DNA from: Gemmata obscuriglobus
GTDB lineage: Bacteria; Planctomycetota; Planctomycetia; Gemmatales; Gemmataceae
Assembly (NCBI RefSeq): GCF_008065095.1
Contig: NZ_CP042911.1
Span: 3,030,001-3,062,000, forward strand
Reading direction: 5' to 3'
Length of the DNA: 32,000 bases
Shown here: piece by piece, positions 3,909-29,381 of the stretch
Position numbering within the stretch: position 1 is the first letter of the stretch
How the letters are laid out: each line of letters starts with the position of its first letter
Translations under genes and position numbers: made by a program
Notes under the pieces: generated by a model
The model's input: only the letters and a program-made list of their open reading frames with translations
Told to the model about the DNA's origin: nothing
Databases searched by the model: none

Positions 3909-4914
3909 TCGGGCGACGCTTCCTTCCCCTCTTCTTCTTCTCGGCGCGCATCGAGCGACGCGCCGCCATTGCTTCGACCAGCAGCGGCCCGGCTACAGTG
4001 GTCACGTCAGCCAAGACCGCGGCCCGCGCGGCGTCCTCAGCGGCTCGCGCCACTTCAGCGTGGCAAAGGCCACGGGCGGCGGCAGTAATGGCCGGCCAGC
4101 GCACTTCGGACAGTGTAAACGAACTGAGTCGATTCTCAATGAGCATCCGCACCGCACCGGTGTCAGGGAGCTCGTACTCGATGACGTCGTCGAAGCGCCG
4201 AAACAGTGCGTCGTCGAGCATGCCGATGAAGTTCGTCGCCGCCACGACGATGCTGTCCGAGTCGTCGCGCTCCATGAACTGCAGAAACGAGTTGAGCACG
4301 CGACGGATCTCGCCGACGTCGTTGGACGCGTTGCGGGTGGCGCCGATCGCGTCGAACTCGTCGAACAGGTACACGCCACGGGTCTCGGCCATCGCATCGA
4401 ACACGATGTGCAGTTTGGCGGCCGTCTCGCCCATGAACTTCGTTATCAGGGCGTGGAGTTGCACGAACATTAGCGGCAGCTGGCACTCTCCAGCAAGCGC
4501 CGCTGCGGTCATCGTTTTGCCGCACCCCGGGGGGCCGACCAAGAGAAGTTTTCGCCTCGGGGCCAGGCCGTGCGAGCGCAACCGCTCCCGCTGGCGCTGT
4601 TGATGGACGATGTCTTGGAGCTGCTGCTGGATGCGGCCGGGCAGCACCATGTCACTGAGCCGCGTGTTCGGGTACGAAGCGCTTACCAGGCCTGCGAGCT
4701 CTCCCGAAGGGCGCGCGATCGGGACCGCCCGGGGCGTACCCGCAGCCGCTTGCCGCCGGCTCTCTTCGACGAGCCCCCGTAACTCTTCGGCTAGGCGTGG
4801 GTTACCGTGCTTCGCGTTGTGGGCTGCGATCTGAAGCGTAACGGCCCGGAACTGCTCATCGTTACGAGCAGAATGACTTCGAATCAGGGCTTTGAGCTGC
4901 TCAGCGGTCGCCAC
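3901..4914 (-). CDS. ietA: Classic-clade AAA ATPase (IetA-like)
   Basis: Walker A LLLVGPPGCGKT, Walker B VYLFDEFDAIG, and an AAA second-region-of-homology-like ATNFIGMLDDALFRRF. GTG start at 4914 with AAGGAA 8 nt upstream. Translationally coupled to the S8 peptidase gene. Confidence 0.85.
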   Translation of the reverse strand: MATAEQLKALIRSHSARNDEQFRAVTLQIAAHNAKHGNPRLAEELRGLVEESRRQAAAGTPRAVPIARPSGELAGLVSASYPNTRLSDMVLPGRIQQQLQDIVHQQRQRERLRSHGLAPRRKLLLVGPPGCGKTMTAAALAGECQLPLMFVQLHALITKFMGETAAKLHIVFDAMAETRGVYLFDEFDAIGATRNASNDVGEIRRVLNSFLQFMERDDSDSIVVAATNFIGMLDDALFRRFDDVIEYELPDTGAVRMLIENRLSSFTLSEVRWPAITAAARGLCHAEVARAAEDAARAAVLADVTTVAGPLLVEAMAARRSMRAEKKKRGRKRRPNE

Positions 4915-8946: not shown

Positions 8947-9054
8947 ATCACTTTTTCGGCAAGCTCGTTAGCGGTCGGCCTCCTTGCCCGAAGCAAAAAC
9001 CACTTGCCCATGTGATCAGCAAAGAGGCATCAGTTCCCTCAGCGACGCTCAAGC

Positions 9055-9672
9055 TCAAGCGCCTCTGCCGAGCTTCTTTCGAAGCGCTTGCAGCAGAGCG
9101 TTTTTGATCTCTAGCGGGTACGCACGAGCCGTCGGAGTTCCCCACCTTCCCCGCTTCGGAAGCGAATGAGGGTCGAGCTCACCTCTCACCTCGTGCGCGA
9201 GCAGCAGCAGCGCATGAATCAATTCGTTGGCCTTCGTGTCGCGCTGCCCGCTCCCGCTCCGGATCAGATCGAGCAACTCCTCGGACATGCGGAGCGCCTC
9301 GGGCGACATGTTGATCTCGCGCCGGGGGCCGGTGTGCCGCGGGGGCCGAGACTCGACAAGGGGTGGCTGCTCTGCCGCCGCCTGAGAAACGACCGGTGGA
9401 GGTGGAAGCAGTTCCCCCACTTTGTGCGCGTCGGCATTCGCCGAAATCGTTGAAGGGGTGAATGCGGGTACCGAACCGATTGGCGGGGGCTCGCTGAAAA
9501 CCTTTGGCTTCAGGATCACAGGTGCGGCACGACTCGGGGCGGCCGGCTCCCCTACCCGCTTCGGCGCCACCGGACTCGGCCCCACTTCCGCCAAGTAGTC
9601 GCCGAGGTCGGTTATCGGGGCCACATCCAAGGTGAACGTGTCAGAGAGGCCGGGCCGGTACTTGTTAGCCAT
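9055..9672 (-). CDS. ParA partner: Pro/Ala-rich protein with a C-terminal ribbon-helix-helix-like segment (candidate centromere-binding protein)
   Basis: ATG at 9672 overlaps the ParA stop by 8 nt (ATGGCTAA). The C-terminus REINMSPEALRMSEELLDLIRSGSG..KANELIHALLLLAHE has a strand-helix-helix pattern like ParG/omega/CopG. Confidence 0.6.
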   Translation of the reverse strand: MANKYRPGLSDTFTLDVAPITDLGDYLAEVGPSPVAPKRVGEPAAPSRAAPVILKPKVFSEPPPIGSVPAFTPSTISANADAHKVGELLPPPPVVSQAAAEQPPLVESRPPRHTGPRREINMSPEALRMSEELLDLIRSGSGQRDTKANELIHALLLLAHEVRGELDPHSLPKRGRWGTPTARAYPLEIKNALLQALRKKLGRGA

Positions 9673-10621
9673 TGACTGTCTCCACATCCTCCAAGCCGGA
9701 GTCGATCACCTGCTCGACGAGTTCGGTACCCGGGAACGGGTTCAGCGTTGCGCCGAACGCGCCCTTGGCGCCACGGTTGATCATCTCCTTGACGAGCGCC
9801 GCACAGTTGGCCGCCTGCTCCTTCGCATCCGGGTGTTCGAAAATCGTGATGCCCCGCTCCGTCGATTCCCGGAAGCGCACCGAGCGACCGATGGTTGTTG
9901 CGAACACGAGCGCCGGAGTGAACCGCTTACATAGGGCCACATGAATCTCTTTATCAAGGATTGCCTTACGGTCGTAGTTTCCGAGCAGCACCCCGGCGAG
10001 ACTAAGGCCCGGGTTGTACGATTTTCGAATCTTCTCGACGGTCCTCGTGATCACCTGTAGCGCCTTCAGATCGTACCCGCTCGGGAACGTCGGGATCACG
10101 CACCAGTCGGCGGCGACGAGGGCCGAGGTCATCAGGAACCCGAGGTTCGGGGGCGTGTCGATGAGGACCACGTCGAACCGGCCCCGTAGCGAGTCGAGCG
10201 ACGCCCGCAGTCGGAACCGGTGCTCGTGGCGCAGCTCCTCCATGCTATCTTCGCTGATGCCGTTGTGAACCAGGAGCCCGAACACCTCTCGCTCCAAACG
10301 GATTTCGACGGACGAGAGCGCGCGGTGGCCCGGCACGACGGAGATGAGGCCGCCGAACCGGTCCTCCGGTGTGACCGCGATTTGGGCCGCCGGAACCTTC
10401 GACAGGTACGCGTCGGCAAGCGTGTACCGCCGCTGCCGGATCATCGCATCGGGATCGACGCCCAAATTGCCGGTGGAATCACACTGCGGGTCGGTGTCGA
10501 CCACGCACACAGAGTAACCAGACGCCGCAAACGCTGCGGCGGTAGAAACGAGAGAGCTCGTTTTCCCGCACCCCCCTTTCTGGTTCGCAAACACAATGAC
10601 CTGAGTCTCTCGAAATTTCAT
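9665..10621 (-). CDS. parA: ParA/Soj-family partition ATPase
   Basis: Deviant Walker A VFANQKGGCGKTS, then VCVVDTDPQ, and VLIDTPPNLG. Confidence 0.9.
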   Translation of the reverse strand: MKFRETQVIVFANQKGGCGKTSSLVSTAAAFAASGYSVCVVDTDPQCDSTGNLGVDPDAMIRQRRYTLADAYLSKVPAAQIAVTPEDRFGGLISVVPGHRALSSVEIRLEREVFGLLVHNGISEDSMEELRHEHRFRLRASLDSLRGRFDVVLIDTPPNLGFLMTSALVAADWCVIPTFPSGYDLKALQVITRTVEKIRKSYNPGLSLAGVLLGNYDRKAILDKEIHVALCKRFTPALVFATTIGRSVRFRESTERGITIFEHPDAKEQAANCAALVKEMINRGAKGAFGATLNPFPGTELVEQVIDSGLEDVETVNG

Positions 10622-10667
10622 ATCCTCGATACGCCCGCCCCGGAAAACCTAAACACGGGCCAAGTAT

Positions 10668-11474
10668 TCCGGTACTCCGGAGGACCGGACAAGAGGGAAA
10701 ATGCATCCGGCAACGAGTCCCCCACTACACCGGGGATACGAGTGCCGGCGCTCCAATCCCGCTCAGCTTTCCCCCGGTACACCGGGCCTCATTCAAGCGA
10801 ACTGTTTTCGCATCACTTTTGGTCCCCCGGAGTACCGGCAGACACAGCGCCTGCCCCCTCTTCTACCCCCCGGTGCACCGGAGGACGCGCAGCCGACGAA
10901 GGTCGCGAGGTCTCGTACCGGGATTTCGGGCATACCTAATTTGGCCCAGAACGATTTTGAGCTCGCCCCCTACCCTCGACGTCGGATCAGCCCTCGGAAT
11001 CCTCACTTCGCGCCTGTCAGGCGGTTTAACGACGCACCAAGCTGCGGATCTCGATCAGTTTTTCTTGCGCCCGGCAGCGATCTGCCCCACTCCCCCGGTA
11101 CACCGGCACACCGAGTTGCCCCGACCGGCCCGTTGGGACGGACTCCCCCGGGCTACCGGGGAACCGAAAGAGGCCCTGGCGTGACGCCGCGTGGGCAGTC
11201 GATCGGTCCCCCGGAGCACCGGGGCTCAACTGAGTGAGGTCTCCGGCCGAAATGCGACTCCCCCGGCACACCGGGGCACCGGCTCGCTGCCGTGTGGCCA
11301 GGAGAAAAATAGTTCCCACGCTGCTGCTGCTACCCCCGGTACTCCGGTCCACCGGGGGACAGGCCTGAAAGCCCAGAGCCGAAACCCAACGAACGCCCCT
11401 GAGAGCCCCGGGGCGCCGGGGGACACGAGCGCGCCCGCCTCAAACCGTGCACTCCGGTCCACCGGGGCACCGGG
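10668..11474. repeat. Array of ~12 dispersed copies of a short palindromic motif, consensus tCCCCCGG-N3-5-(C)ACCGGGG (candidate centromere/parS-like array)
   Basis: Copies begin near 10668, 10718, 10770, 10823, 10865, 11090, 11143, 11207, 11258, 11331, 11405 and 11449. Many are spaced ~42-74 bp apart. The region is non-coding and lies directly upstream of parA. Confidence 0.7.
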
Positions 11475-11619
11475 ACACTATTTCGAATGACAGGTACCGC
11501 TGCTGGTGGTAAATGGTTCAACACGGTTAAAGTACCGTCACGAGACTGGCGCCATTCGCTTGCGGGCCATGCGGCCGATTGCGTTGGCCCAGAGGCCGAA
11601 GCGGGGGAGTGGGGCTGCG

Positions 11620-11811
11620 GTACCAGGATTTCGGGCACATATGTACTGGGAAACGGGGCACGCTTCACGATCGCGAACGGTCGGAAGAGGGGAGTACTGG
11701 GATTTCGGGCAGGCGTACCGGGACTTCGGACACAACCCTACCGGGATTTGGGGCACAGGGTACCGGGATTTGGGACGCACGATTTAGCTCGAGTACCGGG
11801 AATCGGGGCAC
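11620..11811. repeat. Iteron array: 7 direct copies of a 19-bp repeat, consensus GTACCGGGATTTCGGGCAC, plus one isolated copy at 10915-10933
   Basis: Copies at 11620, 11643, 11694, 11715, 11738, 11760 and 11793. Most are phased at 21-23 bp. The array lies ~120 bp upstream of the RepA-type gene. Confidence 0.8.
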
Positions 11812-11860
11812 GAAGTACCCCCTTAACTACTTGGATTTGCTGAGGAAACGGACCGACAAC

Positions 11861-11916
11861 TCTGTTCTTTTAAACATGTATAAAAATACAATAACTCGTG
11901 GTGGTCTTTTTTTAAG
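11861..11916. promoter_or_regulatory. AT-rich stretch (candidate DNA-unwinding element / rep promoter)
   Basis: TCTGTTCTTTTAAACATGTATAAAAATACAATAACTC...TCTTTTTTTAAGG is by eye the most AT-rich segment of the window. It sits between the iterons and rep. Confidence 0.5.
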
Positions 11917-11934
11917 GTGAGATTCAGGAGGAAC

Positions 11935-13368
11935 ATGTCTAAGCGTCCGGTAGCTGCAAATCTTCCCACGAGTGCTCACCCAAACTCCGGGTTCCGGGAC
12001 GAGATGAACTTCGCCGAATTCCCATTGGCCTCACTCTCGGATCGGGTTGCGGACAATCAGAAGACACTCGAGTTCACCGACACCATTGAGGACTCCTCGA
12101 CCGGCAAAGACGTGGTCCGCACGCTGGTCATCACTGCGGCCGACAAGTTCGGTCTTCCCACGGCTCTCGACGACGAACTGCTGCTCGGGCTCATCAAGCT
12201 GTCGGTGGAGCAGGGATTCACCGACCCCAAGGTGTATTTCTCGCGGTACGAGCTCATCAAGAAGCTCGGGTGGCGGGACGAGTCGAAGTCGTACCGGCGC
12301 ATCGAGGACGGGCTCAACCGCTGGACCGGAGTCACGCTCCAGTACCGAAAATCGTGGTGGGTGAACGACGAGAAGAGCTGGGTGACCGAGACGTTCCACG
12401 TGCTCAACTCGGTGACCGTGTACGACCGCGAACGCATCGCCCGGCGGCGAATGATGGCCAAGGACGCGCCCGAGAAGGCGCTCTCGTCGTTCGTGTGGAG
12501 CGACCAGGTGTTTCAGAGCTTCAAGGCCGGGTACATCAAGCAGCTCGACTTCGATTTCTACAAGAGCCTGACGAGTGCCATCTCGAAGCGCATGTTCCGG
12601 TTCCTGGACAAGCGGTTTTACAACACCGGGCGCTGGGAGTTCGACCTCCAGGTGTTCGCGTGTGAGCACATCGGGCTGTCGAAAAACTACTCGAACTCGG
12701 AGCTCAAGCGGAAGCTCGCACCGGCAATATCGGAGCTCGAAACGAATGGATTTCTGGCCCCGCTTTCGGACGACGAACGGTTCGTACGTGAGCGGTGCGG
12801 CAAGTGGCGGGCGGTGTTTGTAAAGGCCACGAAAAAGCTCGCGGTGCTCCCGCGCACCGACGCCGAACACGACCCACTGTTTCGGGATTTAGTGGGCCGT
12901 GGCCTTAACCCCCGCAGCGCCCAAAAGCTGCTGCGCGAACACCCGCCCGAGAAGATTCGAGAGAAGGTTCAGCTCTTCGATCAGCTGAAAGAACGGGTAG
13001 GCGAGGGGACCATTCGCAACCGACCGGGATGGCTGTACGCAGCCATCGTCAAGGACTTTACCGTCGGGGCGGTTGCGTCGGCTCACCCGCCCCCGGTCGT
13101 AGCAGTCGTAACACCGCTCGCGACTGTCGAAGTGAGCGAGCGGGAGCGGGCCGAGAAATCGAAGGCTGAGGCTTTCGAGCGGTACTGGGAAGCGCTTACC
13201 GAAGAGCAGCAGCGCGAGTTCGAAGACCAAGCGGTTGCGGGCGCGTCAGGTTTTCTGCAAAAGCAGTACCACCGAGACAAGGAAGCACGAGGCCACCTGT
13301 GGCATGCGTCACGGCAGAGCATCCTCCTCGAACATTTCAGACGATTCGGGTCTGCTCGAACCGATTAA
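11935..13368 (+). CDS. repA: Plasmid replication initiator (Replication-initiator-protein-A / RepA-like)
   Basis: The N-terminus ...RDEMNFAEFPLASLSDR...VITAADKFGLPTALDDELLLGLIKL matches the RPA-family signature from memory. ATG 11935 is preceded by AGGAGG (11926-11931). The ORF-track GTG at 11917 is less likely. An iteron array lies upstream. Confidence 0.75.
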   Translation: MSKRPVAANLPTSAHPNSGFRDEMNFAEFPLASLSDRVADNQKTLEFTDTIEDSSTGKDVVRTLVITAADKFGLPTALDDELLLGLIKLSVEQGFTDPKVYFSRYELIKKLGWRDESKSYRRIEDGLNRWTGVTLQYRKSWWVNDEKSWVTETFHVLNSVTVYDRERIARRRMMAKDAPEKALSSFVWSDQVFQSFKAGYIKQLDFDFYKSLTSAISKRMFRFLDKRFYNTGRWEFDLQVFACEHIGLSKNYSNSELKRKLAPAISELETNGFLAPLSDDERFVRERCGKWRAVFVKATKKLAVLPRTDAEHDPLFRDLVGRGLNPRSAQKLLREHPPEKIREKVQLFDQLKERVGEGTIRNRPGWLYAAIVKDFTVGAVASAHPPPVVAVVTPLATVEVSERERAEKSKAEAFERYWEALTEEQQREFEDQAVAGASGFLQKQYHRDKEARGHLWHASRQSILLEHFRRFGSARTD

Positions 13369-13506
13369 ACATCGCTCCCGAACCTGTTGCAACCGGTCCG
13401 CCATGGTGTACGGGACAGACGCGGATCCACAATCGAGAGCGCTCAACGGAACGGCACCGGCGAGTGGGGAGGATCGACCTACCTAACTCCGCCGGCCTGA
13501 TAGTCT

Positions 13507-14190
13507 TTAAACGACAGCGCTGCGGGCTGGCTCGCTAGTTGGTTCGGAGTCCGTCAGGCAGCACGCGCCGGGTGTGCTGAGGAGGCCGCTCAGGGCCTGC
13601 CGCACACGATGAAACCGTTGGCGAGCAGCCTCAGAGGTGATTCCTAGCATCTCCGCGATCGCTTTGGGCCTCAAGCCTTTCAGGTGCAACTGCACCAGTT
13701 CCTGGTCGCGCGGCTGCAACCGCCGGAGCGCAAGGCGGAGCCTAGCAACACATCCCTGAGCCTCGCCTTCACCGTCGAAATCCTCACCATGTTTTTGATG
13801 GTCGTTGTCTGGCGAAGACGTCGCGAGAACATCTTTCAAGTCGGCTTCTCGCTGAAGGCGTTGTCGCTCGAGACGAACCCATTTAAGGGTTTGGTTACGG
13901 GCGACGGCGCGGAAATAAGACGCGCAACTGGTTGCCCCGTGTCGGTAGTTGCTACTGGCCTCGATGGCCTTGATGAAGATTGTCTGCAAGGCGTCTTCCG
14001 CATCCTGCGCGAACCCGGCACGAGCCATAACACTGAACACGGTCCCGGCAATCTCGCGGCCCAACCACCTGGCAGCGGCATCGGCATCAGCCTTGGCGTC
14101 GTTGGTACCGAGGCCGACCTTCTGAGCCAGGGACGCGAGGAGCGCGGTGAGGTCCATCGGTCCAGAAATCTGATCTGCACAGACCGTCAT
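13507..14190 (-). CDS. ECF-type sigma-70 family RNA polymerase sigma factor
   Basis: Region 2-like DAEDALQTIFIKA...YFRAVARNQTLKWVR. Region 4-like LQPRDQELVQLHLKGLRPKAIAEMLGITSEAARQRFHRVRQAL. ATG 14190 is preceded by GGAAGGAGA. The upstream extension to 14355 is unlikely. Confidence 0.8.
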   Translation of the reverse strand: MTVCADQISGPMDLTALLASLAQKVGLGTNDAKADADAAARWLGREIAGTVFSVMARAGFAQDAEDALQTIFIKAIEASSNYRHGATSCASYFRAVARNQTLKWVRLERQRLQREADLKDVLATSSPDNDHQKHGEDFDGEGEAQGCVARLRLALRRLQPRDQELVQLHLKGLRPKAIAEMLGITSEAARQRFHRVRQALSGLLSTPGACCLTDSEPTSEPARSAVV

Positions 14191-14491
14191 GATGTTCTCC
14201 TTCCGAGCTTCGAGAAATCGGGGCACGAAGGAAGTAAACTGAATGCCCGGCCGGACGGTGTTGCGCGCGTGCAGGTAGGCTCTCTGCGGGCGGCAAGGAG
14301 AGATTCTGGTTCGGATGATAAAGCCACGGACCGTCATGCGAGGTGATCGACACACGTGTTCTGTTGGAGCAGCAGTAAGTAGGCCGCGCTCATGAAACGT
14401 GGCTACTGGTTTACCGGGTTACCCATCGACAACCTCTTTCAGGCTCTTCTAGGCGCAGTTGACTGATCATCTGGCGGGTGCGGTCAATTTT

Positions 14492-14514
14492 CCAATCTCG
14501 ATAATCGAGATTGG
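14492..14514. promoter_or_regulatory. Perfect 23-bp palindrome CCAATCTCGAT-A-ATCGAGATTGG in the divergent sigma / vWA-operon control region
   Basis: 11+1+11 inverted repeat verified base by base. It is located between the divergent genes at 14190 (-) and 14730 (+). Confidence 0.45.
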
Positions 14515-14729
14515 TTTGGGCGCAGCATTGGCTGCATAACACCCGTTGTTCGGATTTTCCGACTCAATATTTCCTGCCCCGGTTGCCAACTCGTCGCCGC
14601 CGAGCAGCGCACATTTTTTCTGTCTCGCCCGTCACGAATTGAGCTCTTTCGGGAACTATTACATGTCGGCCGGCTGCTGATAATCGCGGCCAGCCGACGC
14701 GAGCATCTCACCAACTCAGGAGCGATTTC

Positions 14730-18972: not shown

Positions 18973-19143
18973 GTGGACACCGAGAGACTTGTGGTGATCG
19001 CTTTGTTTTTGTGGCTGACCTTCTCGCGCTGCGAGCGGTTCATGCACTGGCGTGGCCCGACTGTGGCCTCGCGCGACGAGGCCCAGAACGAGCACCGTTG
19101 GCAGTTCCGCAGGCCAAAAAAACGGGGGGACGATGACGACTAG
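18973..19143 (+). CDS. Small single-TM protein (56 aa), not in the supplied ORF track
   Basis: Hand translation from GTG 18973: VDTERLVVIALFLWLTFSRCERFMHWRGPTVASRDEAQNEHRWQFRRPKKRGDDDD*. Codon third positions are strongly GC-rich. The stop overlaps the T4CP ATG region by 11 nt. Confidence 0.4.
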   Translation: MDTERLVVIALFLWLTFSRCERFMHWRGPTVASRDEAQNEHRWQFRRPKKRGDDDD

Positions 19144-20497
19144 CGACCAGGTCTGGTGCGGCATCTGGCTAGACATGGAGGTGCTGCGGCATGGAATCCG
19201 TTTCATCGGCTCGCCCGGCAGCGGCAAGAGCGTCATGCTTAAAGCTCTCCGCGCAACGCTTGCCACTATAATCAAAAATAGACCAGATTATGACATCCTT
19301 GCCGTTGACTTCGATGGGGGCAAGCGCGATCTGTATGAGATCTTTCGCTTATTTCCCCAGTGGGCCCCGGTCTTCGACTTGAACCCGTTTCTGTGGGGCG
19401 ACCGCTACGACTTCATGGGCGACCTTGAGGACCCGCGCGACATCGCCCAGATGGCGGCCAACATCATTGAGGTGCGGGAGAAGGACAGCCAGCCGTACTT
19501 CCCTCAGGCCGCACAGCATGTGTTCCGAGCCGCGATGCTGCGTCACTGGTTGGTGACGCCGGGCCGCGCAACAACTCGTGACGTGTTCCTGTCGGGGATG
19601 TCGGCGAACAACATCCGCCGGGTCATCGGGAGCCATCCGCAGAGCCGCCACGCTTTACCGCTGGTGAACCGAACCGAGTCAGGTCTTTCGGTGATCTCGA
19701 CGCTGATGAACGAGGTGGGCAAATACGAGTACGTGGCGTCTCTGTGGGACTCAAACGACCGAGGGCGAACCGTGACAATCCGCTCGTTCCTCAAGCAGCG
19801 GTTCGCGCTCCTGTCACTGCCCTACGATGACAAGTCGGTTGCCACACTCGCTGCGGTCGTCCGCTACCTGCTCGTAGTGCTCCAGCAACGGGCCCTGAGT
19901 ACCGTTGTGCGCAACCGGTATCTCCTGTTGCTCCTCGACGAATTGGCCCTCCTCCCAGGGGGGATCAACCTGGACCTCACGCTCGTGAAAGGCAGAGAGA
20001 CGGGTATTTGCCCGTTGTTCGCGTACCAGAGCCATTCCCACTGCCGGACCGTTCACGGCAAGGAAAAATTCGACGCGATGACTGGGTTGATGAAGACCAC
20101 GATCGTGCTCAACCAGCCGTCGCGGGAAGACGCCGAGTATTGCGCGAAGGTCTTCTCGGACCAACAGGGCTTCATGAAGTTCAACTCCGCCCAGGGGGGC
20201 AAGAACCCGAGCACGGGTTGGTCCGAGCAGCTCACTACGGTGGAGAACGTGACGGCGGCCATGATCCAGTCGCTCCCCGTGCCGACCCCGGCGACCCCGT
20301 TCATCGAAGGGTTCATGGTGACGCTCCCGTTTCGCCCGTTCCGGTTCCGGGTCCGCATCCCGGACCTGCTCAAGGCGCTGGTTCCTACAGTCGCGCCCCA
20401 GGCCCCGCCGGCCCCGCGCGACCCGAAAGACTTCTTGCTTCGGCCCTGGTCCGAGGACGACTACAAGCGCCTAGGCTTGCCGCGCCCCCGGAACTGA
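19133..20497 (+). CDS. Type IV secretion coupling protein (TraD/TraG/VirD4-like ATPase), soluble domain only
   Basis: Walker A IRFIGSPGSGKSV, Walker B YLLLLLDELALLPG, and the T4CP-like block LFAYQSHSHCRTVHGKEKFDAMTGLMKTTIVLNQPSREDAEYCAKVF. ATG 19133 is more likely than the upstream 19052 start. There is no N-terminal TM segment. Confidence 0.7.
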   Translation: MTTSDQVWCGIWLDMEVLRHGIRFIGSPGSGKSVMLKALRATLATIIKNRPDYDILAVDFDGGKRDLYEIFRLFPQWAPVFDLNPFLWGDRYDFMGDLEDPRDIAQMAANIIEVREKDSQPYFPQAAQHVFRAAMLRHWLVTPGRATTRDVFLSGMSANNIRRVIGSHPQSRHALPLVNRTESGLSVISTLMNEVGKYEYVASLWDSNDRGRTVTIRSFLKQRFALLSLPYDDKSVATLAAVVRYLLVVLQQRALSTVVRNRYLLLLLDELALLPGGINLDLTLVKGRETGICPLFAYQSHSHCRTVHGKEKFDAMTGLMKTTIVLNQPSREDAEYCAKVFSDQQGFMKFNSAQGGKNPSTGWSEQLTTVENVTAAMIQSLPVPTPATPFIEGFMVTLPFRPFRFRVRIPDLLKALVPTVAPQAPPAPRDPKDFLLRPWSEDDYKRLGLPRPRN

Positions 20498-22644: not shown

Positions 22645-22894
22645 ATAGTCAGCTTAAATTAGCTGGTATCTACCGCAGCGAGGATGGTACTCATTAAGTT
22701 GATTCCGTACTCGCTGAGGTACGAGCGATCAGGAACCCGGAGAAATTGGCGGCGACGCATTTATGCTGGTGTCAAATTCTGCTGGGCTCGGGAACATGTG
22801 TGGCCTAAAGCTTCACGATTGGTCACAAGTAGCATAACTGCTCCGATGACTTATTTACCCCTAGATGAGGGGTAATAGATTCGGAGAACTGGAT

Positions 22895-23485
22895 ATGCTA
22901 GCAGACAAAGTCAACCAAAACCAAGGCGGGAGAGAGCCGCAAGATCGAAGTACAACCTCATCGCAAAGAGTTACTACTGAGCAAGGCGGATTAGGCGATC
23001 TTAGTAAACCATCACCGCTGAATGCGTTCATCGAACGCCTTCGGTCCCCTGAGGTGGCTGCCTTGTGCGCCCGGCTAGATGCCGAGGTCTCGGCTCCCGG
23101 CTACGTCCCGCCACCGTCTCCGGAATGGCTTCCGGACCCGTTCGGGAACGACCCGTTCGGAGGCGACTTTGTCTGGGCGGAGCCAAAAGGCCTAGACGCA
23201 ACGACCAACAGCAGTGAGCCTCAAGGCCGAGATGCAGGACCGGCGCAAGAAAGTACTACCGAGCAAGGTGGATTCGATGGTCTCAGTCAGCCATCACGGC
23301 TCGCTGCATTTGAGGAGCACCTTCGGTCGCCTGAGGTGGCTGCTCTGTGCGCCAGGTTAGATGCTGAGGCTTCGGCTCCCGGCTACGTCCCGCCCACGTC
23401 GCCGGAACGGCTGTCGGACCCGTCCGGCTCCCACTTTGACCGGGCGGAGTTAAAAGATCCAGACGCAACGACCAGCAAAAAGTAG
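22895..23485 (+). CDS. Soluble protein made of two tandem copies of a ~94-aa unit, each containing the shared LRSPEVAALCARLDAE.SAPGYVPP module
   Basis: The internal repeat has a 282-nt period (TTEQGG at aa 37 and aa 131 of the 22865 frame). ATG 22895 has GGAGA 7 nt upstream; the alternative ATG is at 22865. Confidence 0.6.
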   Translation: MLADKVNQNQGGREPQDRSTTSSQRVTTEQGGLGDLSKPSPLNAFIERLRSPEVAALCARLDAEVSAPGYVPPPSPEWLPDPFGNDPFGGDFVWAEPKGLDATTNSSEPQGRDAGPAQESTTEQGGFDGLSQPSRLAAFEEHLRSPEVAALCARLDAEASAPGYVPPTSPERLSDPSGSHFDRAELKDPDATTSKK

Positions 23486-23548
23486 AACAAGGTCGAACGA
23501 AGTTTCGGTCAGGCTTACTCGTCCGGCGACAGTAGCGGGAGTGTCAGA

Positions 23549-24259
23549 ATGGCTCGTTTTAGATCGGACATTGCGATCGATTGGATAAACGAAGGATATC
23601 GCCTTTTAGGCGATGCTAATATTAATGATTGTGAATATCAAAATGTAATTATTAGGCAACGAATTTTTAACTCAATAACCAATGCATATTGGCGGGCGGT
23701 GGTACGTTATGCTGGAACGGTCGAGCCGCCACTGCAAAGAGACAACGAGTTGCCCGAGCAGGCACTACTGCGCCTGCTCGGGCAAAACTCAGGAACGATC
23801 AGCCGATGGCTGAACGGAAGAACGCCGCCTCAAGCTGACAAGGTGCTCGGCAGCCTGGTCATCGTTCTCGTGAAAGAAATTGAAGACATTGACCTCCCGC
23901 CGATTCGTGAGATCGCCTGGCAAGCTGTCAGCCAGACAATGAATGTAATTCGTCAAGAGGATTTAGGTCGCGGTCCTCGAACGCTTTCAAGGCAGGAGTT
24001 CGCCTGCGTCCGATGGCTCGCGCGCCACGTGCAGTCGAGGGCATATGCGGAGGGACATTCACGGAATACTCAAAATCCCGAGTTAGAAGCGCAGGTTCTT
24101 ACCGACGTTTTCCATAAAGTCAGGCTTCGATTTCCAGAAGTCGCGGCCGGGCTCGTCCCGGTCGCTATCTCTGAATGGCTCCGACCCTACCTGTTATTTC
24201 GGGTCGGCCTACTTGGCGGCTGGAGAAGCCTCGAGGAGCACCCCGATGTCACGGCTTGA
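23549..24259 (+). CDS. XRE-like HTH protein with unassigned N- and C-terminal regions
   Basis: LPEQALLRLLGQNSGTISRWLNGRTPP resembles an XRE-type HTH. The 5' ~150 nt of the gene are conspicuously AT-rich. Confidence 0.55.
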   Translation: MARFRSDIAIDWINEGYRLLGDANINDCEYQNVIIRQRIFNSITNAYWRAVVRYAGTVEPPLQRDNELPEQALLRLLGQNSGTISRWLNGRTPPQADKVLGSLVIVLVKEIEDIDLPPIREIAWQAVSQTMNVIRQEDLGRGPRTLSRQEFACVRWLARHVQSRAYAEGHSRNTQNPELEAQVLTDVFHKVRLRFPEVAAGLVPVAISEWLRPYLLFRVGLLGGWRSLEEHPDVTA

Positions 24260-25007
24260 TGCGTTTGAGGAGCACCTTCGGTCGCCTGAGGTGGCCGCCC
24301 TGTGCGCCCGGCTGGATGCCGAGGTTTCGGCTCCCGGGTACGTCCCGCCCCCGTCTCCCGAATGGGAGGAAGACCCCTTCGGGCCAGACCCGTTCGGGCA
24401 AAACTGGGCCTGGGCGGAAGCGTCGGATCAGCAACCGCCTCCCCAAGCTGGAGATCCCGCACCGAGTATGCGCACGGAGTCTCGTCGGCCCGATCGAATT
24501 CGCTATCTGGCCTACGCAGGTGGCGCAGCGCTTGCGGCATCAATATTAATCGCCCTCGGCATTTTTGTCGGACAGCGTGGCCGAGACGACGGAGCACTCG
24601 AGGTTGCCCTCGCAGCGCGGGTAACGGCACAAGAAGACCCGACCCGTGGTCCCGGTACCGTAGCCGGCGTCGCCGTTACGAATCGGACTAGTCGGAAGAC
24701 ATATTTGACCATCGTGGGGCTGGCCGCTGACCGCCGCCCGGCCGTCCACTACCGCGAAGAGCAACAGTTCATCAGCGTTGCGCCAAGTGGCGACCGGGAA
24801 GTCAAAAACCTTCCTGCCGCCTTCGACGGGTGTCCGGTGGTGGTTGTCGTGTTGACGGGAACACCTGCCGGAGAAGTGGTGCGGGGGATGGCCACGGACC
24901 CGATTGCCCCGACCGACGCCGCGAAGTTCGGCGACGCATTGAAAACCAAACTCAGTGACGCGGGGTACACAGGAATCGCAGCCGAGATCGTGCGAATCAA
25001 GCCGTAG
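24246..25007 (+). CDS. Bitopic membrane protein: N-terminal shared module, one TM helix, C-terminal DUF4384-like beta-rich domain
   Basis: MSRLDAFEEHLRSPEVAALCARLDAEVSAPGYVPPPSPEW...DPFGPDPFG. TM helix YLAYAGGAALAASILIALGIFVG. The C-terminus ...KTYLTIVGLAADRRPAV...FISVAPSGDREVKNLP...VVVVVLTGTP resembles the DUF4384 pattern. The ATG overlaps the previous gene by 14 nt. Confidence 0.6.
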   Translation: MSRLDAFEEHLRSPEVAALCARLDAEVSAPGYVPPPSPEWEEDPFGPDPFGQNWAWAEASDQQPPPQAGDPAPSMRTESRRPDRIRYLAYAGGAALAASILIALGIFVGQRGRDDGALEVALAARVTAQEDPTRGPGTVAGVAVTNRTSRKTYLTIVGLAADRRPAVHYREEQQFISVAPSGDREVKNLPAAFDGCPVVVVVLTGTPAGEVVRGMATDPIAPTDAAKFGDALKTKLSDAGYTGIAAEIVRIKP

Positions 25008-25070
25008 TTCCTGTAAAATGCCCAAAGTATCGCATCAGCCAGCTGCGACCGATAGCTGAGGACCAGCCCC

Positions 25071-27725
25071 ATGAAATTGTCTCGGTCGAAGGTGCTGCTG
25101 ACCCTGATGGTTCTCGGCACGACAGGCTTTGGGGTCGGTGGAGTGTACTGGCTGCTGGCCAAACCTCGCCACGAGAAGGCTACCGAGCAAACGTTCCGCG
25201 ATACTGAACGTGACGGATCAGCTACACCTGTCACGCCCAATTCCGAGTCTCCTTCTGCCGGCACGCCGAAGGCGGCCAGTACCGAGAGAAGACTGTTCCC
25301 GTTCCGCCGGGTAGTGGCCATCGTCATCGGGATTAACAATTACCCGCACCTCACGGGCACAGCTAACTTGGCGTGTGCCGAATCCGACGCTCGATCGGTT
25401 GGTGACCTGCTCGACCGCCATTACGGCTACCAGATCGTCCCACTCCTCGGGGCACAGGCTACCAAAGCGGCCATTGAGACAGCCATCCAGAAAAATGGCC
25501 GAGAGCTGGGCGAACGCGATGCACTGGTCGTTTACTTCGCCGGACATGGTCAGGTGATTGAGTTGGCGGGACATGGTGAGGCGGGGTACCTCATCCCGGC
25601 AGACGCTCGCCTCGATCTGAAAGACGCTAGAGATGCGTCTCGCTGGGCGGAGCAGGCGATTGACATGCAGCAGTTGACCGCCCAAATGGAAGAGGCGACC
25701 GCCCAGCACACGGTCTTCATTGCTGACGCCTGTTGCAGCGGGTACATGACAGCACGCGGTTCTCTAGAGCGCTGGGACCTGAAGAACTTCTTGACTGGCA
25801 AATCACGCACGGTGATTACCGCGACCAACCGCCGTCAACTCGCGCGGGAGGACGCAACCGGTAAGCACGGGTATTTCACCGCCGCTCTACTCAACGAGTT
25901 AAGCAAGACCGACGCGGCCAGCGTGCTCGACATCTACTACCCGCTATCGCGGGTCGTCCCCGAGAAAGTTAACGGCAACATGCAGCCGCAGTTTGCGCAG
26001 TTCGGCGAGGGAACCGGCATGTTCGTTTTCATCCCGATGTCGATTCCGAAGGAAGAAATCGAAAGCGATCTGAACGCCGAGAACGCTACCTTACTCGCCA
26101 ACCGTAACGCGGGCGTCGCCGGGGTAATTAATCGCGCCGCCAACCAGGCCAAGCAGAAAACCACCTACGCGGAGTTCCTCGCCGCCCTCGCCGCAACCGA
26201 ATACCGTTTTGCCGTGAACGCGGAAGAGCAGCGCCAGGGCTGGGAACAAAAGTTCGCCCGCTACCATCGGAACGCACTGATGGGTGATGTGTGGGCGATG
26301 GCGGCATTGTGCTGCTGTTACGAGAAGGGTCTCGGAGTCGAGAAGGACTTGGCTCAAGTTGTCTATTGGGCACGGCAAGCAAATCGGGTGCGGCAGTCAC
26401 CGGGCGTGGGAAGCTATCTGATAGGGTACTGCTACAACAAAGGGTACATTACGCCGAATTCGGAAGCCCGTTCCAAAGAGCAAGCAAAGCGTCTTTTCGC
26501 AGAGAGTGCGATGAAAGGGTTCGGGCCGGCCCAGTTGGCGCACGCCGGAAATCTTTACGGCGACGGTACGCAGCTCTCCCGGGATCAGCGGCAAGCAGTA
26601 TACGATCTACTTGAAAAAGCGGTCGCCGAGGGTGTACTCCTTGCGAACGTTGAGCTTGGGCTTTGCTTGCTCGAGGACAACCTCCGGTCGGCGGACGCCA
26701 AACTGGAGGCCCGCGCCATCCAGCTGCTGGAGTCGGCTGCGAGCAAAGGGTTCTCCCGAGCTCACTTTTTTTTGTCTCAACTCTACAGTGGCCAGTCTGT
26801 GCGTGGCAAAGCTCTTCTCACTGCGAGAGATTTCAAGAAGGCGAGATCCCACCTCTTACAGGCATGTGAAGCGGGCCACGCGACGGCTCTCCTTGGACTT
26901 GGTACGCTTTATTTTACCGGTGATGCCAATTGGGGCATAGCCAAAGATCTCCCTCGCGCATTCGAATTTTTCGAGCAGGCGGGGGAGCTCGGCGAAGCGA
27001 CTGCTCTATGCCTATCTGCTCTAATGCTGGCCGATGGGTCGGGTGGCATTAAAGACCCAGAGAAAGCGAAAGCAAGACTCGAGCAAGCTGTCAAATACGG
27101 GGCTCCGGAATCGGATTTCATGCTGGGCAAATGGTACCAAACCGGCAAAGTGTACCAACGGAGTGATGAGCAAGCCCTCGCTGCCTTTCGCCGTGGGGCC
27201 GACAAAGGCCACGCTGGGAGCTGTTTTCACGCCGGCCTGATGTACCTCAAGGGTGAAGGGTTCAAGGCCAAATGGCAGAGTGAAGGAGGCTTCCATACTG
27301 AATGGCATATGGGCCTCCATTATTTTGTTGAGTCGTCGCGAAGCGGCCAACCAGATGCGGCCCGCCAAACAACCATAAATAAATGGATGCTAGATTTCAC
27401 CCGCTATCTCGAAGGCGGTGCATTTAGCAAAGAAATCGACCAAGCACTTAATACCAACCCATCGAGCGTGGACGCTTTCGGCCCTAAATCTCCCCCCGGT
27501 GGGAACAAGCAAGGCTCACGCGGTCAGCGTCAGGAAATAGTGATTCACAGCGGAATTTCATTTTCGTCACTTCGTGGCAATTTGATCGTCGAGGCCACAC
27601 AGGTTGCAAAGCAGTGGAGGACCGAGAATCCCGACAGCTTTAAGTACTTCTGCAGCAAGTGGGGAGTCGATCCGGACTCATTGGAAGTGAAGGAAAAAGC
27701 TGCCCCCAAACAAAAGACGCCATAG
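25071..27725 (+). CDS. N-terminally membrane-anchored caspase-like (peptidase C14, orthocaspase) protein with a long Sel1-like repeat region
   Basis: TM helix VLLTLMVLGTTGFGVGGVYWLL. Caspase fold markers: VAIVIGINNY, catalytic His in VVYFAGHGQ (H159), catalytic Cys in VFIADACCSGY (C221). Multiple Sel1-type units follow (e.g. AMAALCCCYEKGLGVEKDLAQVVYWARQA; LGTLYFTGDANWGIAKDLPRAFEFFEQA; MLGKWYQTGKVYQRSDEQALAAFRRGA). Confidence 0.85.
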   Translation: MKLSRSKVLLTLMVLGTTGFGVGGVYWLLAKPRHEKATEQTFRDTERDGSATPVTPNSESPSAGTPKAASTERRLFPFRRVVAIVIGINNYPHLTGTANLACAESDARSVGDLLDRHYGYQIVPLLGAQATKAAIETAIQKNGRELGERDALVVYFAGHGQVIELAGHGEAGYLIPADARLDLKDARDASRWAEQAIDMQQLTAQMEEATAQHTVFIADACCSGYMTARGSLERWDLKNFLTGKSRTVITATNRRQLAREDATGKHGYFTAALLNELSKTDAASVLDIYYPLSRVVPEKVNGNMQPQFAQFGEGTGMFVFIPMSIPKEEIESDLNAENATLLANRNAGVAGVINRAANQAKQKTTYAEFLAALAATEYRFAVNAEEQRQGWEQKFARYHRNALMGDVWAMAALCCCYEKGLGVEKDLAQVVYWARQANRVRQSPGVGSYLIGYCYNKGYITPNSEARSKEQAKRLFAESAMKGFGPAQLAHAGNLYGDGTQLSRDQRQAVYDLLEKAVAEGVLLANVELGLCLLEDNLRSADAKLEARAIQLLESAASKGFSRAHFFLSQLYSGQSVRGKALLTARDFKKARSHLLQACEAGHATALLGLGTLYFTGDANWGIAKDLPRAFEFFEQAGELGEATALCLSALMLADGSGGIKDPEKAKARLEQAVKYGAPESDFMLGKWYQTGKVYQRSDEQALAAFRRGADKGHAGSCFHAGLMYLKGEGFKAKWQSEGGFHTEWHMGLHYFVESSRSGQPDAARQTTINKWMLDFTRYLEGGAFSKEIDQALNTNPSSVDAFGPKSPPGGNKQGSRGQRQEIVIHSGISFSSLRGNLIVEATQVAKQWRTENPDSFKYFCSKWGVDPDSLEVKEKAAPKQKTP

Positions 27726-27766: not shown

Positions 27767-27889
27767 AACCCGTAGCAAACCCGGCAAAACGCGGTAAACT
27801 ATAGAGAAGTGCCGTCCGCCGGACTGGTACCTGTCACACTCGAAAGTGCCTAGTTTTCAAGCGTTTCAACCGAGCTGGCGAACCTGAGA

Positions 27890-27940
27890 CGTTGCGGCTG
27901 TTAACCGCTAGGTTCTTGGTTCGAATCCAAGTCGGGGAGC
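27890..27940 (+). other. 3' half of a tRNA-Asn(GUU) gene (anticodon arm to acceptor 3' strand); att-type core / junction between two islands
   Basis: GCGG-CTGTTAA-CCGC anticodon arm (GTT). T arm CTTGG-TTCGAAT-CCAAG. Acceptor 3' strand TCGGGGA + G. No complementary 5' acceptor strand (T-YYYY-G-R) or D-arm can be found upstream, so it is not an intact tRNA. Confidence 0.6.
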
Positions 27941-28049
27941 TGACAGAAGTCCTTTCGCCGAAGCTACTTAGCTTACCTCCCGGCGTTCGGGAGCGCGGTC
28001 TCTGGATGCCGAGTTTTGCGGGAACTCCCGCAATACAAGAGGTGTCAGA

Positions 28050-29381
28050 ATGCCGCGTCCGAAGAATCCCATCCCCACGCCCCGCTGCCACAAAAACCGG
28101 GCCGTCATCGATTTCTATGATGGCGGCAAACGTCGCACCGTCACCCTCGGCCCTTGGGGTTCGCCCGAGGCCGAACGGGAATTCGCGCGAATCCTCGCCG
28201 AAGTTGCGGCCACACCGGATCGGTCCGTCGGATCCAACCCGACGGTCAACGAGGTGCTCCTCGCGTTCCTCCGCTGGGCCGACGGGTACTACCGCACCCC
28301 GGACGGAAAGCCCACCCACGAGGTCGTCGAGTTGCGGCTCTCGGCACGCCCGGTGCGCGAGCTGTACGGGCACACCCCGGCCCGCGAGTTCGGCCCCAAG
28401 GCCCTGACCGCGGTCCGACAGCAGATGATCGACGCGGGGCTCAGCCGCACCCTCATCAACCGCCGCGCCGACCGCATCAAGCGCGTGTTCAAGTGGGCCT
28501 CGTCGGAAGAACTCGTGCCGGTGGCGGTGTACCAGGCGCTTCGCACCGTCACCGGGTTGCGGCGCGGGCGGACCGAGGCCCGCGAGAGCAAGCCCGTCGG
28601 ACCCGTGGACGGCGCCACCGTCGATGCCACATTGCCTCGACTCGACGCCCACCTGCGCGCCATGATCGAGCTCCAGCGGTTCACGGGCATGCGCCCCGGC
28701 GAGGCGTGCGGGTTCCGACTCGCACAGGTGGACCGCACCGGGGAGGTGTGGTTCTACCGGCCCGAGCGGCACAAGACCGCGCACCACGGGCGTGGGCGGG
28801 TGATCCCGATCGGCCCGAAGGCCCGCGCCGCTCTGCTCGCATTCCTGCTCCGCGACGGTCCGCCGCCCGCCGGGTTCGTACCGCCCGCCCCGGGCGACGA
28901 CACCGCGCGGCTGGTGCTCGTGGACGCGTACCAGGAAGCGGGCCGGGAGCGTGACGCGGCTCTGCTCCGCGATCTCGCGCGGCCCATCGTGTTCATCGCC
29001 GGGTGTGTCGTGGACCCGGGCGCTCCGCTGTTCAGCCCCGCCGTGGCCCGCGAGGAGCGGTTCAAGGCCGCGCGGAAGAACCGTAAGAGCAAGGTGCCCC
29101 CGTCACAGCAGAATCGACGCAAGGGCGCCCCCGAGCGCGTACCGGGAGCCGAGTTCACGGTGACCGCGTACGGGCACGCGATCCGCAAGGCGGCCGCCAA
29201 GGCCGGCGTGGCCCGCTGGCACCCGAACCAGCTGCGGCACACGTTCGGGACCGAGGTGCGGCGCGTGTACGGGTTGGAGGCGGCCCAGGTGCTGCTCGGG
29301 CACTCGCGGGCCGACGTGACCCAGGTGTACGCCGAACGCAACGAGTCCCTGGCCGCGGAAATTGCCGCGAAAATCGGTTGA
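28050..29381 (+). CDS. int: Tyrosine site-specific recombinase (integrase)
   Basis: Catalytic contexts FTGMRPGEA (Arg), RHKT (Lys), HPNQLRHTFGT (His-x-x-Arg region), LLGHSRADVTQVYAE (His, Tyr). It lies ~110 nt downstream of the tRNA-Asn fragment. Confidence 0.9.
   Translation: MPRPKNPIPTPRCHKNRAVIDFYDGGKRRTVTLGPWGSPEAEREFARILAEVAATPDRSVGSNPTVNEVLLAFLRWADGYYRTPDGKPTHEVVELRLSARPVRELYGHTPAREFGPKALTAVRQQMIDAGLSRTLINRRADRIKRVFKWASSEELVPVAVYQALRTVTGLRRGRTEARESKPVGPVDGATVDATLPRLDAHLRAMIELQRFTGMRPGEACGFRLAQVDRTGEVWFYRPERHKTAHHGRGRVIPIGPKARAALLAFLLRDGPPPAGFVPPAPGDDTARLVLVDAYQEAGRERDAALLRDLARPIVFIAGCVVDPGAPLFSPAVAREERFKAARKNRKSKVPPSQQNRRKGAPERVPGAEFTVTAYGHAIRKAAAKAGVARWHPNQLRHTFGTEVRRVYGLEAAQVLLGHSRADVTQVYAERNESLAAEIAAKIG

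Follow-up and report, generated by a model that had tools for sequence, protein, structure and literature searches.

We describe a four-gene cassette in a 32,000-nt stretch of the Gemmata obscuriglobus chromosome (NZ_CP042911.1, positions 3,030,001 to 3,062,000; hereafter, the window). The cassette is a genuine operon, conserved in Gemmata and relatives, and encodes a small soluble protein (g1), a DNA-binding protein candidate (g2), a single-pass membrane protein (g3) and a caspase-Sel1 protein (g4). We estimate a probability of about one half that these proteins constitute a split transmembrane signalling pathway gated by a caspase, comparable to anti-sigma/sigma factor pairs, in which g3 would tether g2. 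All window coordinates below refer to the first letter of the stretch as position 1.

22865..23485, + strand: g1, open reading frame (ORF) of 206 amino acids (aa), soluble; first of the four co-directional genes
23549..24259, + strand: g2, ORF of 236 aa, predicted all-helical, with a putative central helix-turn-helix (HTH)
24246..25007, + strand: g3, ORF of 253 aa, single-pass membrane protein
25071..27725, + strand: g4, ORF of 884 aa, caspase and Sel1 repeats

Gaps of 63 nt separate g1 from g2 and g3 from g4, and the g2/g3 overlap is 14 nt long, which bears out the packed, co-directional arrangement and the overlap described in an initial annotation of this DNA. The sequences of the two gaps showed no likeness when compared, and promoter and terminator scans returned only background-level signal. 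The order g1-g2-g3-g4 was found in at least 8 other loci, namely the 6 listed below and the sigma-like variant at L006 and L025, and identity of g4 across the recurring loci is only 37-57%. The same cassette was present wherever the contig was long enough around relatives of g3.

L005: g1 130 aa, g2 331 aa, g3 266 aa, g4 879 aa
L010: g1 94 aa, g2 247 aa, g3 248 aa, g4 815 aa
L016: g1 201 aa, g2 235 aa, g3 252 aa, g4 860 aa
L013 (Fimbriiglobus metagenome-assembled genome): g1 ~95 aa, g2 259 aa, g3 262 aa, g4 ~860 aa
L015 (same Fimbriiglobus metagenome-assembled genome as L013): g1 94 aa, g2 259 aa, g3 262 aa, g4 ~865 aa
L024: g1 300 aa, g2 244 aa, g3 248 aa, g4 948 aa

For three unrelated types of N-terminal domain, the genes thus follow the same order: a soluble paralogue of the cytoplasmic domain, the regulator, the tether bearing that domain and the exported caspase. 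At a further locus, L008, g2 and g3 are followed by an inserted PIN/PhdYeFM toxin-antitoxin pair (10802-11415) and then by the caspase, with AbiEi/AbiEii genes around (L008 5601-7147). Genome and metagenome scans added only 5 further loci, and the viral contigs scanned for the cassette family contained no relative. All named family members belong to the Gemmataceae.

The feature linking g1 to g3 is a 30-aa module, LRSPEVAALCARLDAE[VA]SAPGYVPP[PT]SPE[WR], which we located at residues 59-88 and 153-182 of g1 and residues 11-40 of g3, that is, in the 3 copies (1 at the N-terminus of g3 and 2 in g1) reported in the initial annotation. Both the first g1 copy and the g3 copy are followed by a doubled DPFG, and the DPFG/W tail of the second g1 copy has degenerated. 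Apart from its 2 tandem g3-type modules, g1 has a low-complexity N-terminus and is devoid of transmembrane (TM) helices, signal peptides and hydrophobic leaders, and it matched no Pfam, NCBIfam or PADLOC model; the NCBI annotation gives a 196-aa form starting at 22895. The copies in g1, with their ratios of nonsynonymous to synonymous substitution rates (dN/dS) in comparison with the g3 module, are as follows.

23009..23188, + strand: g1 module copy a (aa 49-108), core 23039-23128, then DPFGNDPFGGDFVW; 81% aa identity to the g3 module, dN/dS 0.31
23285..23452, + strand: g1 module copy b (aa 141-196), core 23321-23410; 84% aa identity to the g3 module, dN/dS 0.19

The 3 window copies are 71-79% identical at the DNA level and 79-84% identical at the protein level, with dN/dS of 0.19-0.31. 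Protein identity above DNA identity, combined with such low dN/dS, indicates old, diverged copies under purifying selection; the same values exclude a chance match or a fresh duplication as the source of the likeness. In type-A modules (those of the window, L005, L010, L016 and L024), we also observed a strongly conserved terminal GPDPFG..W.W motif, resembling a short linear motif, which in the window lies at 23135-23161 and 24372-24398, DPFG being lost in g1 copy b.

The correspondence between the 2 proteins extends to the other loci, at each of which the small soluble first protein ends in, or consists of, the N-terminal modules of its own g3. The number of copies per g1 is 1 in L005, L010, L013, L015 and L016, 2 in the window and 4 in L024. 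The Fimbriiglobus module (LQAYLSGRADA..AAVEAALADP..) is of a sequence type unlike that of Gemmata, and still the g1 and g3 proteins there match each other. Likewise, g1 proteins of a third class, type C, match the hidden Markov model of the type-C g3 N-terminal domain with 63 and 49 bits. Module identity is 62-84% within a locus versus ~36-69% between loci, and the synonymous divergence (dS) is 0.33-0.78 within a locus (4 loci) versus mostly 1 to >2 between loci, indicating that the copies were duplicated or homogenised after the loci had diverged. In L024, dS between the g1 and g3 modules is saturated (1.56), with protein identity of 75% and dN of 0.14, a combination that calls for selection for matching sequences. 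Recent gene conversion as the sole cause of the g1-g3 likeness was rejected in view of the within-locus dS of 0.3-0.8 and the saturated L024 pair. As to the origin of g1, a short contig (L022, positions 1-507) contains the end of a g2 gene, an overlapping ORF of 73 aa that encodes the module alone, and the first part of a second g2, an arrangement indicating that g1 arises as a truncated copy of g3. The initial annotation had read the cassette as a signalling or conflict-type module and had tied that reading to conservation of the gene neighbourhood and of the module elsewhere; since both are kept in other genomes, the reading stands and is indeed supported.

What the module binds is suggested by its covariation with the regulator. 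The module type changes with the gene upstream of g3, which encodes an XRE protein of type A, an XRE protein of type B (24-25% identity to type A), a sigma-like protein or a true extracytoplasmic function (ECF) sigma factor, the latter paired with a zinc anti-sigma domain. Between L016 (2482-7572) and L008 (9088-12453), the TM helix and C-terminal domain of g3 are 90% and g4 is 80% identical, whereas the module is only 46% and g2 only 30% identical, both being unrelated in type. Thus, an "output" block composed of g2 and the module was exchanged against a constant "input" block. Moreover, g1 of L016 is a chimera in which the N-terminal ~104 residues of the long L008 g2 (74% identity) are joined to the module, a Rosetta-stone type of link. 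Homologues of g2 lie directly upstream of g3, and overlap it, in at least 8 loci. The initial annotation had named both the HTH protein and the Sel1 region as possible readers of the module; our results favour the former and lend no support to the latter, so that its interpretation was right in kind and wrong about the protein that reads the module.

Based on the covariation and the L016/L008 swap, we regard g3 as a putative anti-sigma-like tether that would bind and inhibit its partner. Two features of a single-pass anti-factor are found in g3, namely a predicted N-in topology and the 14-nt overlap with the upstream regulator gene. Its parts are listed below.

24246-24419, + strand: g3 predicted cytoplasmic two-helix module, core 24276-24365 (AlphaFold2 and topology statistics)
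24504-24572, + strand: g3 TM helix, Gly/Ala-rich, residues 87-109
24606-25004, + strand: g3 predicted periplasmic beta-sandwich and 2 helices, C-terminal domain, residues 121-253 (AlphaFold2, predicted local distance difference test (pLDDT) >90)

A disordered Pro-rich linker connects the module to the TM helix. The single TM helix and the confidently modelled C-terminal domain agree with the bitopic protein proposed initially. By contrast, the suggested likeness of this domain to DUF4384 did not hold up: g3 has no Pfam match at E <= 0.1 and, at the level of sequence comparison, none of the 148 g3-family members matches PF14326 (DUF4384) at E <= 0.01. Searches of g3 against the Pfam, NCBIfam and PADLOC models gave no match, and Foldseek comparison of the g3 model with PDB and BFVD retrieved only generic Ig-like beta-sandwiches or noise. 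The C-terminal domain of g3 represents a new family of predicted periplasmic domains lacking a Pfam model.

A word-index search identified 9 close relatives of g3, and a profile search of 1.84 billion representatives extended the family to 147 clusters at 50% identity, most of them either ~250 aa or ~340-350 aa in length. Throughout the family, the TM helix and everything C-terminal to it are constant, and the N-terminal cytoplasmic part is variable. Only 2 of the 148 members (P0111 and P0100, at L018 and L019) carry a zf-HC2 (HxxxCxxC) N-terminus, and in both cases a gene with ECF sigma region 4 lies directly upstream, with a 4-8 nt overlap, and a g4-type caspase downstream. In the type-C class (~340 aa, with an N-terminal domain of ~160 aa), represented at L006 and L025, the tether is preceded by a 192-aa sigma-like protein and this, in turn, by a soluble protein of ~163 aa. 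The 192-aa protein yields sub-threshold matches to Sigma70_r2 (E 3e-3), Sigma70_r4 (3e-4) and Sigma70_ECF (5e-4), and a profile built from the 2 sequences found only spurious matches to designed proteins in PDB. The N-terminus of the window g3 matches none of the anti-sigma domain models (zf-HC2/ZAS) and has the two-helix module instead. In P0150 (L020), HTH_3 is fused to the TM helix and C-terminal domain, followed by a 1020-aa caspase-Sel1-TPR protein, and in P0082 (L021) the N-terminal domain is TIR_2, followed by a caspase. The L020 locus (8001-14604 of a 12.7-Mb metagenomic contig) further encodes, after the 1020-aa protein, which is a lipoprotein, HTH_17 and an integrase; its cassette occupies the same position relative to these element-end genes as that of the window.

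The predicted topology separates the module from the protease. Across 113 g3-family members, Lys and Arg residues average 3.5 in the 15-residue stretch preceding the TM helix versus 1.9 after it, and the N-terminal flank has more of them in 82 members and fewer in 16. This excess predicts a cytoplasmic N-terminal domain and a periplasmic beta-sandwich. At the N-termini of g4 and its homologues, a few basic residues precede a hydrophobic helix, and more distant homologues have a classical signal peptide (SPALG|QD) or a lipobox (FAVSG|C), from which the caspase-Sel1 protein is predicted to lie outside the cytoplasmic membrane. Most characterised bacterial Sel1 proteins act outside the cytoplasm. 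With the module predicted to be cytoplasmic and the caspase-Sel1 protein exported, the module would be beyond the reach of g4. The module as a ligand of the caspase or of the Sel1 repeats was therefore rejected on predicted topology, and so was the idea, put forward initially, that the Sel1 region or the caspase recognises or cuts the module with g1 as decoy substrate, given the opposite predicted membrane sides and the lack of a signal peptide in g1.

The protease itself is the most securely assigned component. Residues 81-309 of g4 match Peptidase_C14 (PF00656) with E 9.9e-19 (68.4 bits vs cutoff 21.4), the Sel1 repeats match PF08238 with E 1e-17, and a profile of 7 g4 homologues matches Sel1-repeat structures down to E 6e-35 over approximately positions 385-775. 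The dyad H159 (FAGHGQ) and C221 (DACCSG) is invariant in the 7 homologues (43-57% identity). Thus, the TM helix, catalytic dyad and Sel1 region assigned to g4 in the initial annotation were all recovered.

25092-25160, + strand: g4 signal anchor, hydrophobic helix at residues 8-30
25311-25997, + strand: g4 Peptidase_C14 domain; H159 codon at 25545-25547, C221 codon at 25731-25733
~26268-27290, + strand: g4 Sel1 repeats, ~9-10
+ strand: g4 conserved C-terminal tail, FxYFCxKWGVDP

The DxC motif preceding the catalytic Cys presumably resembles that of Arg/Lys-specific metacaspases. Among NCBIfam models, the best match of g4 is NF047832 ("caspase, EACC1-associated type"), at 70.4 bits vs a curated cutoff of 140, and CHAT appears only as a weak secondary match in the homologues. 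Exact copies of g4 are present in CP025958.1 and ABGO01000021.1.

We consider g2 to be probably the DNA-binding output protein. Although the window protein itself has no match in Pfam, NCBIfam or PADLOC, a profile of 7 homologues compared with PDB places a putative Cro/C1 (XRE)-type HTH at its centre (aa 73-101, nt 23765-23851), the hits being the HTH of P22 C2 repressor (E 2.8e-4), HigA (0.055) and lambda CII (0.1). In 2 of the 7 members, HTH_3 matches with E 1.5e-3, below the gathering score. The XRE-type HTH assigned to g2 initially thus gains weak backing from the family profile and none from Pfam for the window protein itself. A word-index homology search with g2, alone and with a 4-sequence profile, retrieved only g2 itself and 1 homologue.

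Collectively, these observations can be accommodated in the following mechanism. The cytoplasmic two-helix module of g3 would hold the XRE-type g2, and the periplasmic beta-sandwich of g3 would face g4, whose Sel1 repeat domain is the presumed binder of a signal or partner. In response to a periplasmic cue, g4 would cut g3 outside the membrane, either after a conserved Arg in the disordered juxtamembrane linker (residues 111-120) or in the invariant R134-G135 loop, both of which are candidate sites. A housekeeping intramembrane protease, together with cytoplasmic proteases, would then clear the remaining stump of g3, and g2 would be free to act on DNA. Because g1 duplicates the presumed regulator-binding domain in soluble form, it would most simply be a competitor that buffers free g2, that is, an anti-factor mimic vying with g3 and serving as a cytoplasmic buffer or threshold-setter, and expansion to 2-4 modules may give greater buffering capacity. 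What the sequences show is the gene content, its conservation, the catalytic dyad, the predicted topology, the modular swaps and the covariation of g1 with g3; we infer the binding of g2 by the module, the cutting of g3 by g4, the intramembrane step, the signal and the regulon.

Several points weigh against this pathway. The links of g2 to the module and of g4 to the C-terminal domain of g3 are both ones that we infer. The HTH call in g2 is weak, with E ~3e-4 from a 7-sequence profile, and the AlphaFold2 model of g2, all-helical, is of low confidence (pLDDT 54) and unreliable because the underlying alignment contained only 2 sequences. No palindromic operator common to the regions upstream of g1 was found in the 9 loci searched. 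The predicted topology relies on the positive-inside rule and on the appearance of signal peptides, in planctomycetes with their unusual cell plans, and the charges flanking the g4 helix in the window are balanced (3 vs 3 Lys and Arg). L008 has no g1, and the soluble duplicate of the anti-factor might just as well serve as an adaptor or, in some loci, be an inert relic. Finally, the TIR-fused relative of g3 suggests that the output in some relatives is other than the release of a transcription factor. Separately from the multi-locus search, a 16-bp palindrome, CAGCTTAAATTAGCTG, lies at 22650-22665, 215 nt upstream of g1; it is a possible operator seen in the window only.

The initial annotation stated that no described system has this wiring, which was too strong, since DdvA/DdvS of Myxococcus xanthus is comparable (PMC6061681, PMC11506125) and, by analogy of architecture, is the closest known system. 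DdvA spans the membrane as an anti-sigma factor and carries, on its periplasmic side, a TPR-CHAT caspase-like domain, which has been proposed to act as the site-1 protease that clips the linker before RseP does, so that the sigma factor is released and a CBASS-CRISPR island is switched on (PMC6061681, PMC11506125). As in DdvA/DdvS, a single-pass protein with a small cytoplasmic N-terminal domain is proposed to hold a transcription factor encoded upstream, a periplasmic caspase fold with TPR-type repeats is the presumed sensor and site-1 protease, intramembrane proteolysis is proposed to follow, and there are links to defence islands and mobile DNA. Some g3 relatives even share the zinc (HxxxCxxC) anti-sigma domain and the ECF sigma partner. 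The differences are nonetheless substantial. Whereas DdvA combines protease, anti-sigma and TM parts in one polypeptide, the protease of the cassette is encoded by a separate gene, belongs to Peptidase_C14 rather than CHAT, has its catalytic domain before the repeats, and has repeats of the Sel1 type; its dyad is intact and invariant, unlike the incomplete active site of DdvA. Furthermore, g3 has its own small periplasmic beta-sandwich, the partner in the window is an XRE-type HTH protein with a two-helix module instead of an ECF sigma factor with a zinc anti-sigma domain, and g1 is an additional protein that copies the cytoplasmic domain in soluble form.

Two other systems share parts of the proposed logic. 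In the craspase of type III-E CRISPR, the TPR-CHAT protease Csx29 cuts Csx30, which binds the sigma factor RpoE (bioRxiv 10.1101/2022.08.17.504292), so that here too a caspase fold with TPR-type repeats cuts an anti-sigma-like protein and alters transcription factor activity; the small Csx31, which modulates the complex, is loosely like the role proposed for g1. Unlike the cassette, however, craspase is cytoplasmic, RNA-guided and soluble, homology is limited to the caspase fold, and the C-terminal domains of some Csx30 proteins are DUF4384, to which g3 showed no sequence match. The cassette is also organised like canonical pathways in which an ECF sigma factor is controlled through regulated intramembrane proteolysis of a single-pass anti-sigma factor (RseA-DegS-RseP type), with a regulator gene followed by an overlapping gene for a membrane anti-factor of N-in topology and, as proposed here, protease-triggered release. 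It differs from these pathways in the site-1 protease (a caspase vs a serine protease), the XRE-type regulator and the extra soluble paralogue of the anti-factor. What is new with respect to the theme of protease-gated anti-sigma factors is the exported Peptidase_C14-Sel1 protease, the unnamed periplasmic tether domain, the XRE-type partner and the soluble anti-factor mimic.

The cassette is carried by a plasmid-like integrated element of ~60% GC that occupies the window up to ~27.9 kb. This element encodes IetA/IetS, a ResIII helicase, ParA, RepA, an ECF sigma factor, a type IV coupling protein (T4CP), an MT-A70 methylase and HTH_17, and contains 7 iterons of 18 nt. The Iet defence pair (1215-4914, - strand) consists of an 897-aa subtilase (IetS, E 8e-33) and a 337-aa AAA ATPase (IetA, E 5e-69), as identified by PADLOC. 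Other features of the element and its surroundings are listed below.

9665-10621, - strand: ParA, part of a plasmid-type maintenance block inside the chromosome
10915-11810: 7 iteron-like repeats of 18 nt, GTACCGGGATTTCGGGCA
11917-13368: RepA/RPA initiator
13507-14355, - strand: ECF sigma factor
19133-20497: T4CP
27884..27941, + strand: tRNA-Asn(GUU)-like 3' fragment, read directly, with anticodon arm, T arm GGTTCGAATCC and 3' acceptor strand
28050-29381: integrase (Pfam match), in the 70% GC segment

ARAGORN and Rfam called no tRNA in the region of the tRNA-like fragment. GC content rises from ~54% to 70% at the fragment and is 70-76% from ~28.0 kb, beyond which the integrase, DUF1580 and DUF3854 are encoded. 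The fragment is probably the remnant of an attachment (att) site at the right edge of the ~60% GC element, between 2 tandem elements, and the integrase, lying in the 70% GC segment past it, probably belongs to another element. The placement of the cassette at the cargo end of a mobile element, next to its att site, as stated in the initial annotation, is accordingly plausible for the right edge, where the tRNA-Asn-like fragment and the GC jump separate g4 from the integrase.

Four other explanations have to be weighed. The first, which we consider unlikely, is that g3 and g4 form a pair similar to the two-gene EACC1-caspase conflict system (PMC7159879; bioRxiv 10.1101/2025.11.14.688446), in which case g3 would be a latent membrane-damaging effector, cut by g4 to bring about cell death (abortive infection), with g2 as a mere regulator of the operon and g1 either as a decoy for the protease or as a buffer resembling an antitoxin. 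Once its caspase has cleaved it, EACC1 forms pores (bioRxiv 10.1101/2025.11.14.688446). In both systems, a small single-TM protein is encoded 5' of a caspase that is expected to cut this neighbouring membrane protein, and the TM helix of g3 is strongly conserved and Gly/Ala-rich, as has been described for EACC1. The EACC1-associated model is the nearest to g4 in NCBIfam, albeit below cutoff, a relative of g3 carries TIR, and the cassette resides on mobile elements, in the window near the Iet defence pair. However, g3 matched no model in Pfam, NCBIfam or PADLOC, the presence of an EACC1 model in each library being unconfirmed, and, with 253 aa, it is about twice as long as the reported EACC1 fragments (5.7 and 7.1 kDa) imply, and it has a folded domain predicted to be periplasmic and a cytoplasmic one that can be swapped. 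Moreover, g4 is predicted to be exported, whereas the EACC1 caspase studied is fused to the phage-sensing Avs12 (bioRxiv 10.1101/2025.11.14.688446), and g1 and the module, being predicted to be cytoplasmic, could not serve as decoy substrates of an exported protease. The relatives with a zinc anti-sigma domain and ECF sigma factor, with a sigma-like partner or with a fused HTH point to an output that is transcriptional rather than pore formation.

Equally improbable in our estimate is an element switch reminiscent of ImmR/ImmA, in which g2 would be the Cro/C1-type repressor of the element, g3 and g4 would feed an envelope or cell-contact signal into the induction of excision or transfer, and g1 would tune the amount of free repressor. 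The g2 profile does match the phage repressors P22 C2 and lambda CII; the window cassette lies between an HTH_17 (excisionase-like) gene on one side and the att-like tRNA fragment and integrase on the other; the fused-HTH version at L020 is likewise followed by HTH_17 and an integrase; other loci are next to T4CP, TrwC or ParA genes; and the window element has RepA, ParA, iterons and T4CP. Yet the neighbouring integrase is probably that of another element, L008 sits among toxin-antitoxin genes with no obvious transfer genes, and cargo genes are commonly found at element ends for unrelated reasons. In any case, such a switch differs from the caspase-gated release of g2 in the regulon alone, the mechanism being the same.

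We find it still harder to favour a homotypic adaptor, akin to effector-associated domains, whereby the module would drive self-association of g1 and g3 instead of binding g2, with g1 recruiting or capping g3 oligomers. Effector-associated domains of adjacent genes are each other's closest relatives (Kaur et al., PMC7159879), as are the g1 and g3 modules, and tandem arrays of 2-4 modules would suit multivalent scaffolding. Nevertheless, the module is short (2 helices and GPDPFG..W.W) and resembles a ligand that a folded partner would bind. Its type follows that of the regulator encoded upstream, the true anti-sigma domains with ECF sigma factors included; g2 and the module were exchanged jointly between L016 and L008; and the g1 of L016 joins the g2 N-terminal domain to the module.

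The least credible alternative is that a partial duplication of g2-g3 left g1 behind as a non-functional relic and that only g2, g3 and g4 matter, as might be suggested by the module-only ORF from a truncated g3 between 2 g2 copies in L022, the chimeric L016 g1 (5' part of g2 plus module), the lack of g1 in L008 and its being uncalled in one genome annotation, but this is at odds with intact g1 ORFs at the head of the cassette in at least 8 loci with 3 unrelated module types, dN/dS of 0.18-0.8, the 75% protein identity at saturated synonymous sites in L024 and the expansion to 2-4 module copies.

Bacterial caspase-fold proteases are increasingly recognised as switches in defence and stress, and DdvA is the only periplasmic, anti-sigma-linked case that has been studied, with its protease step still unproven. 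Because protease, tether and regulator are separate proteins in the cassette and the catalytic dyad is intact, the idea of a caspase acting as a site-1 protease becomes directly testable. The cassette also suggests that a short peptide module can tether XRE-type regulators to the membrane, extending such tethering beyond sigma factors, and that a soluble copy of the tether may be a threshold device, while the periplasmic domain family of g3 recurs on planctomycete plasmid-like elements beside known defence genes. More tentatively, and with the odds against it, exported caspase-Sel1 proteins may be the site-1 proteases of an unnamed class of tethers that hold ECF sigma factors, XRE repressors or TIR effectors, with a soluble anti-factor mimic, g1, of 1-4 tandem modules competing for the regulator and setting the threshold. 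If true, this would constitute anti-sigma mimicry, a regulatory principle that mirrors the sigma mimicry of the PhyR type and is undescribed for membrane-tethered regulators.

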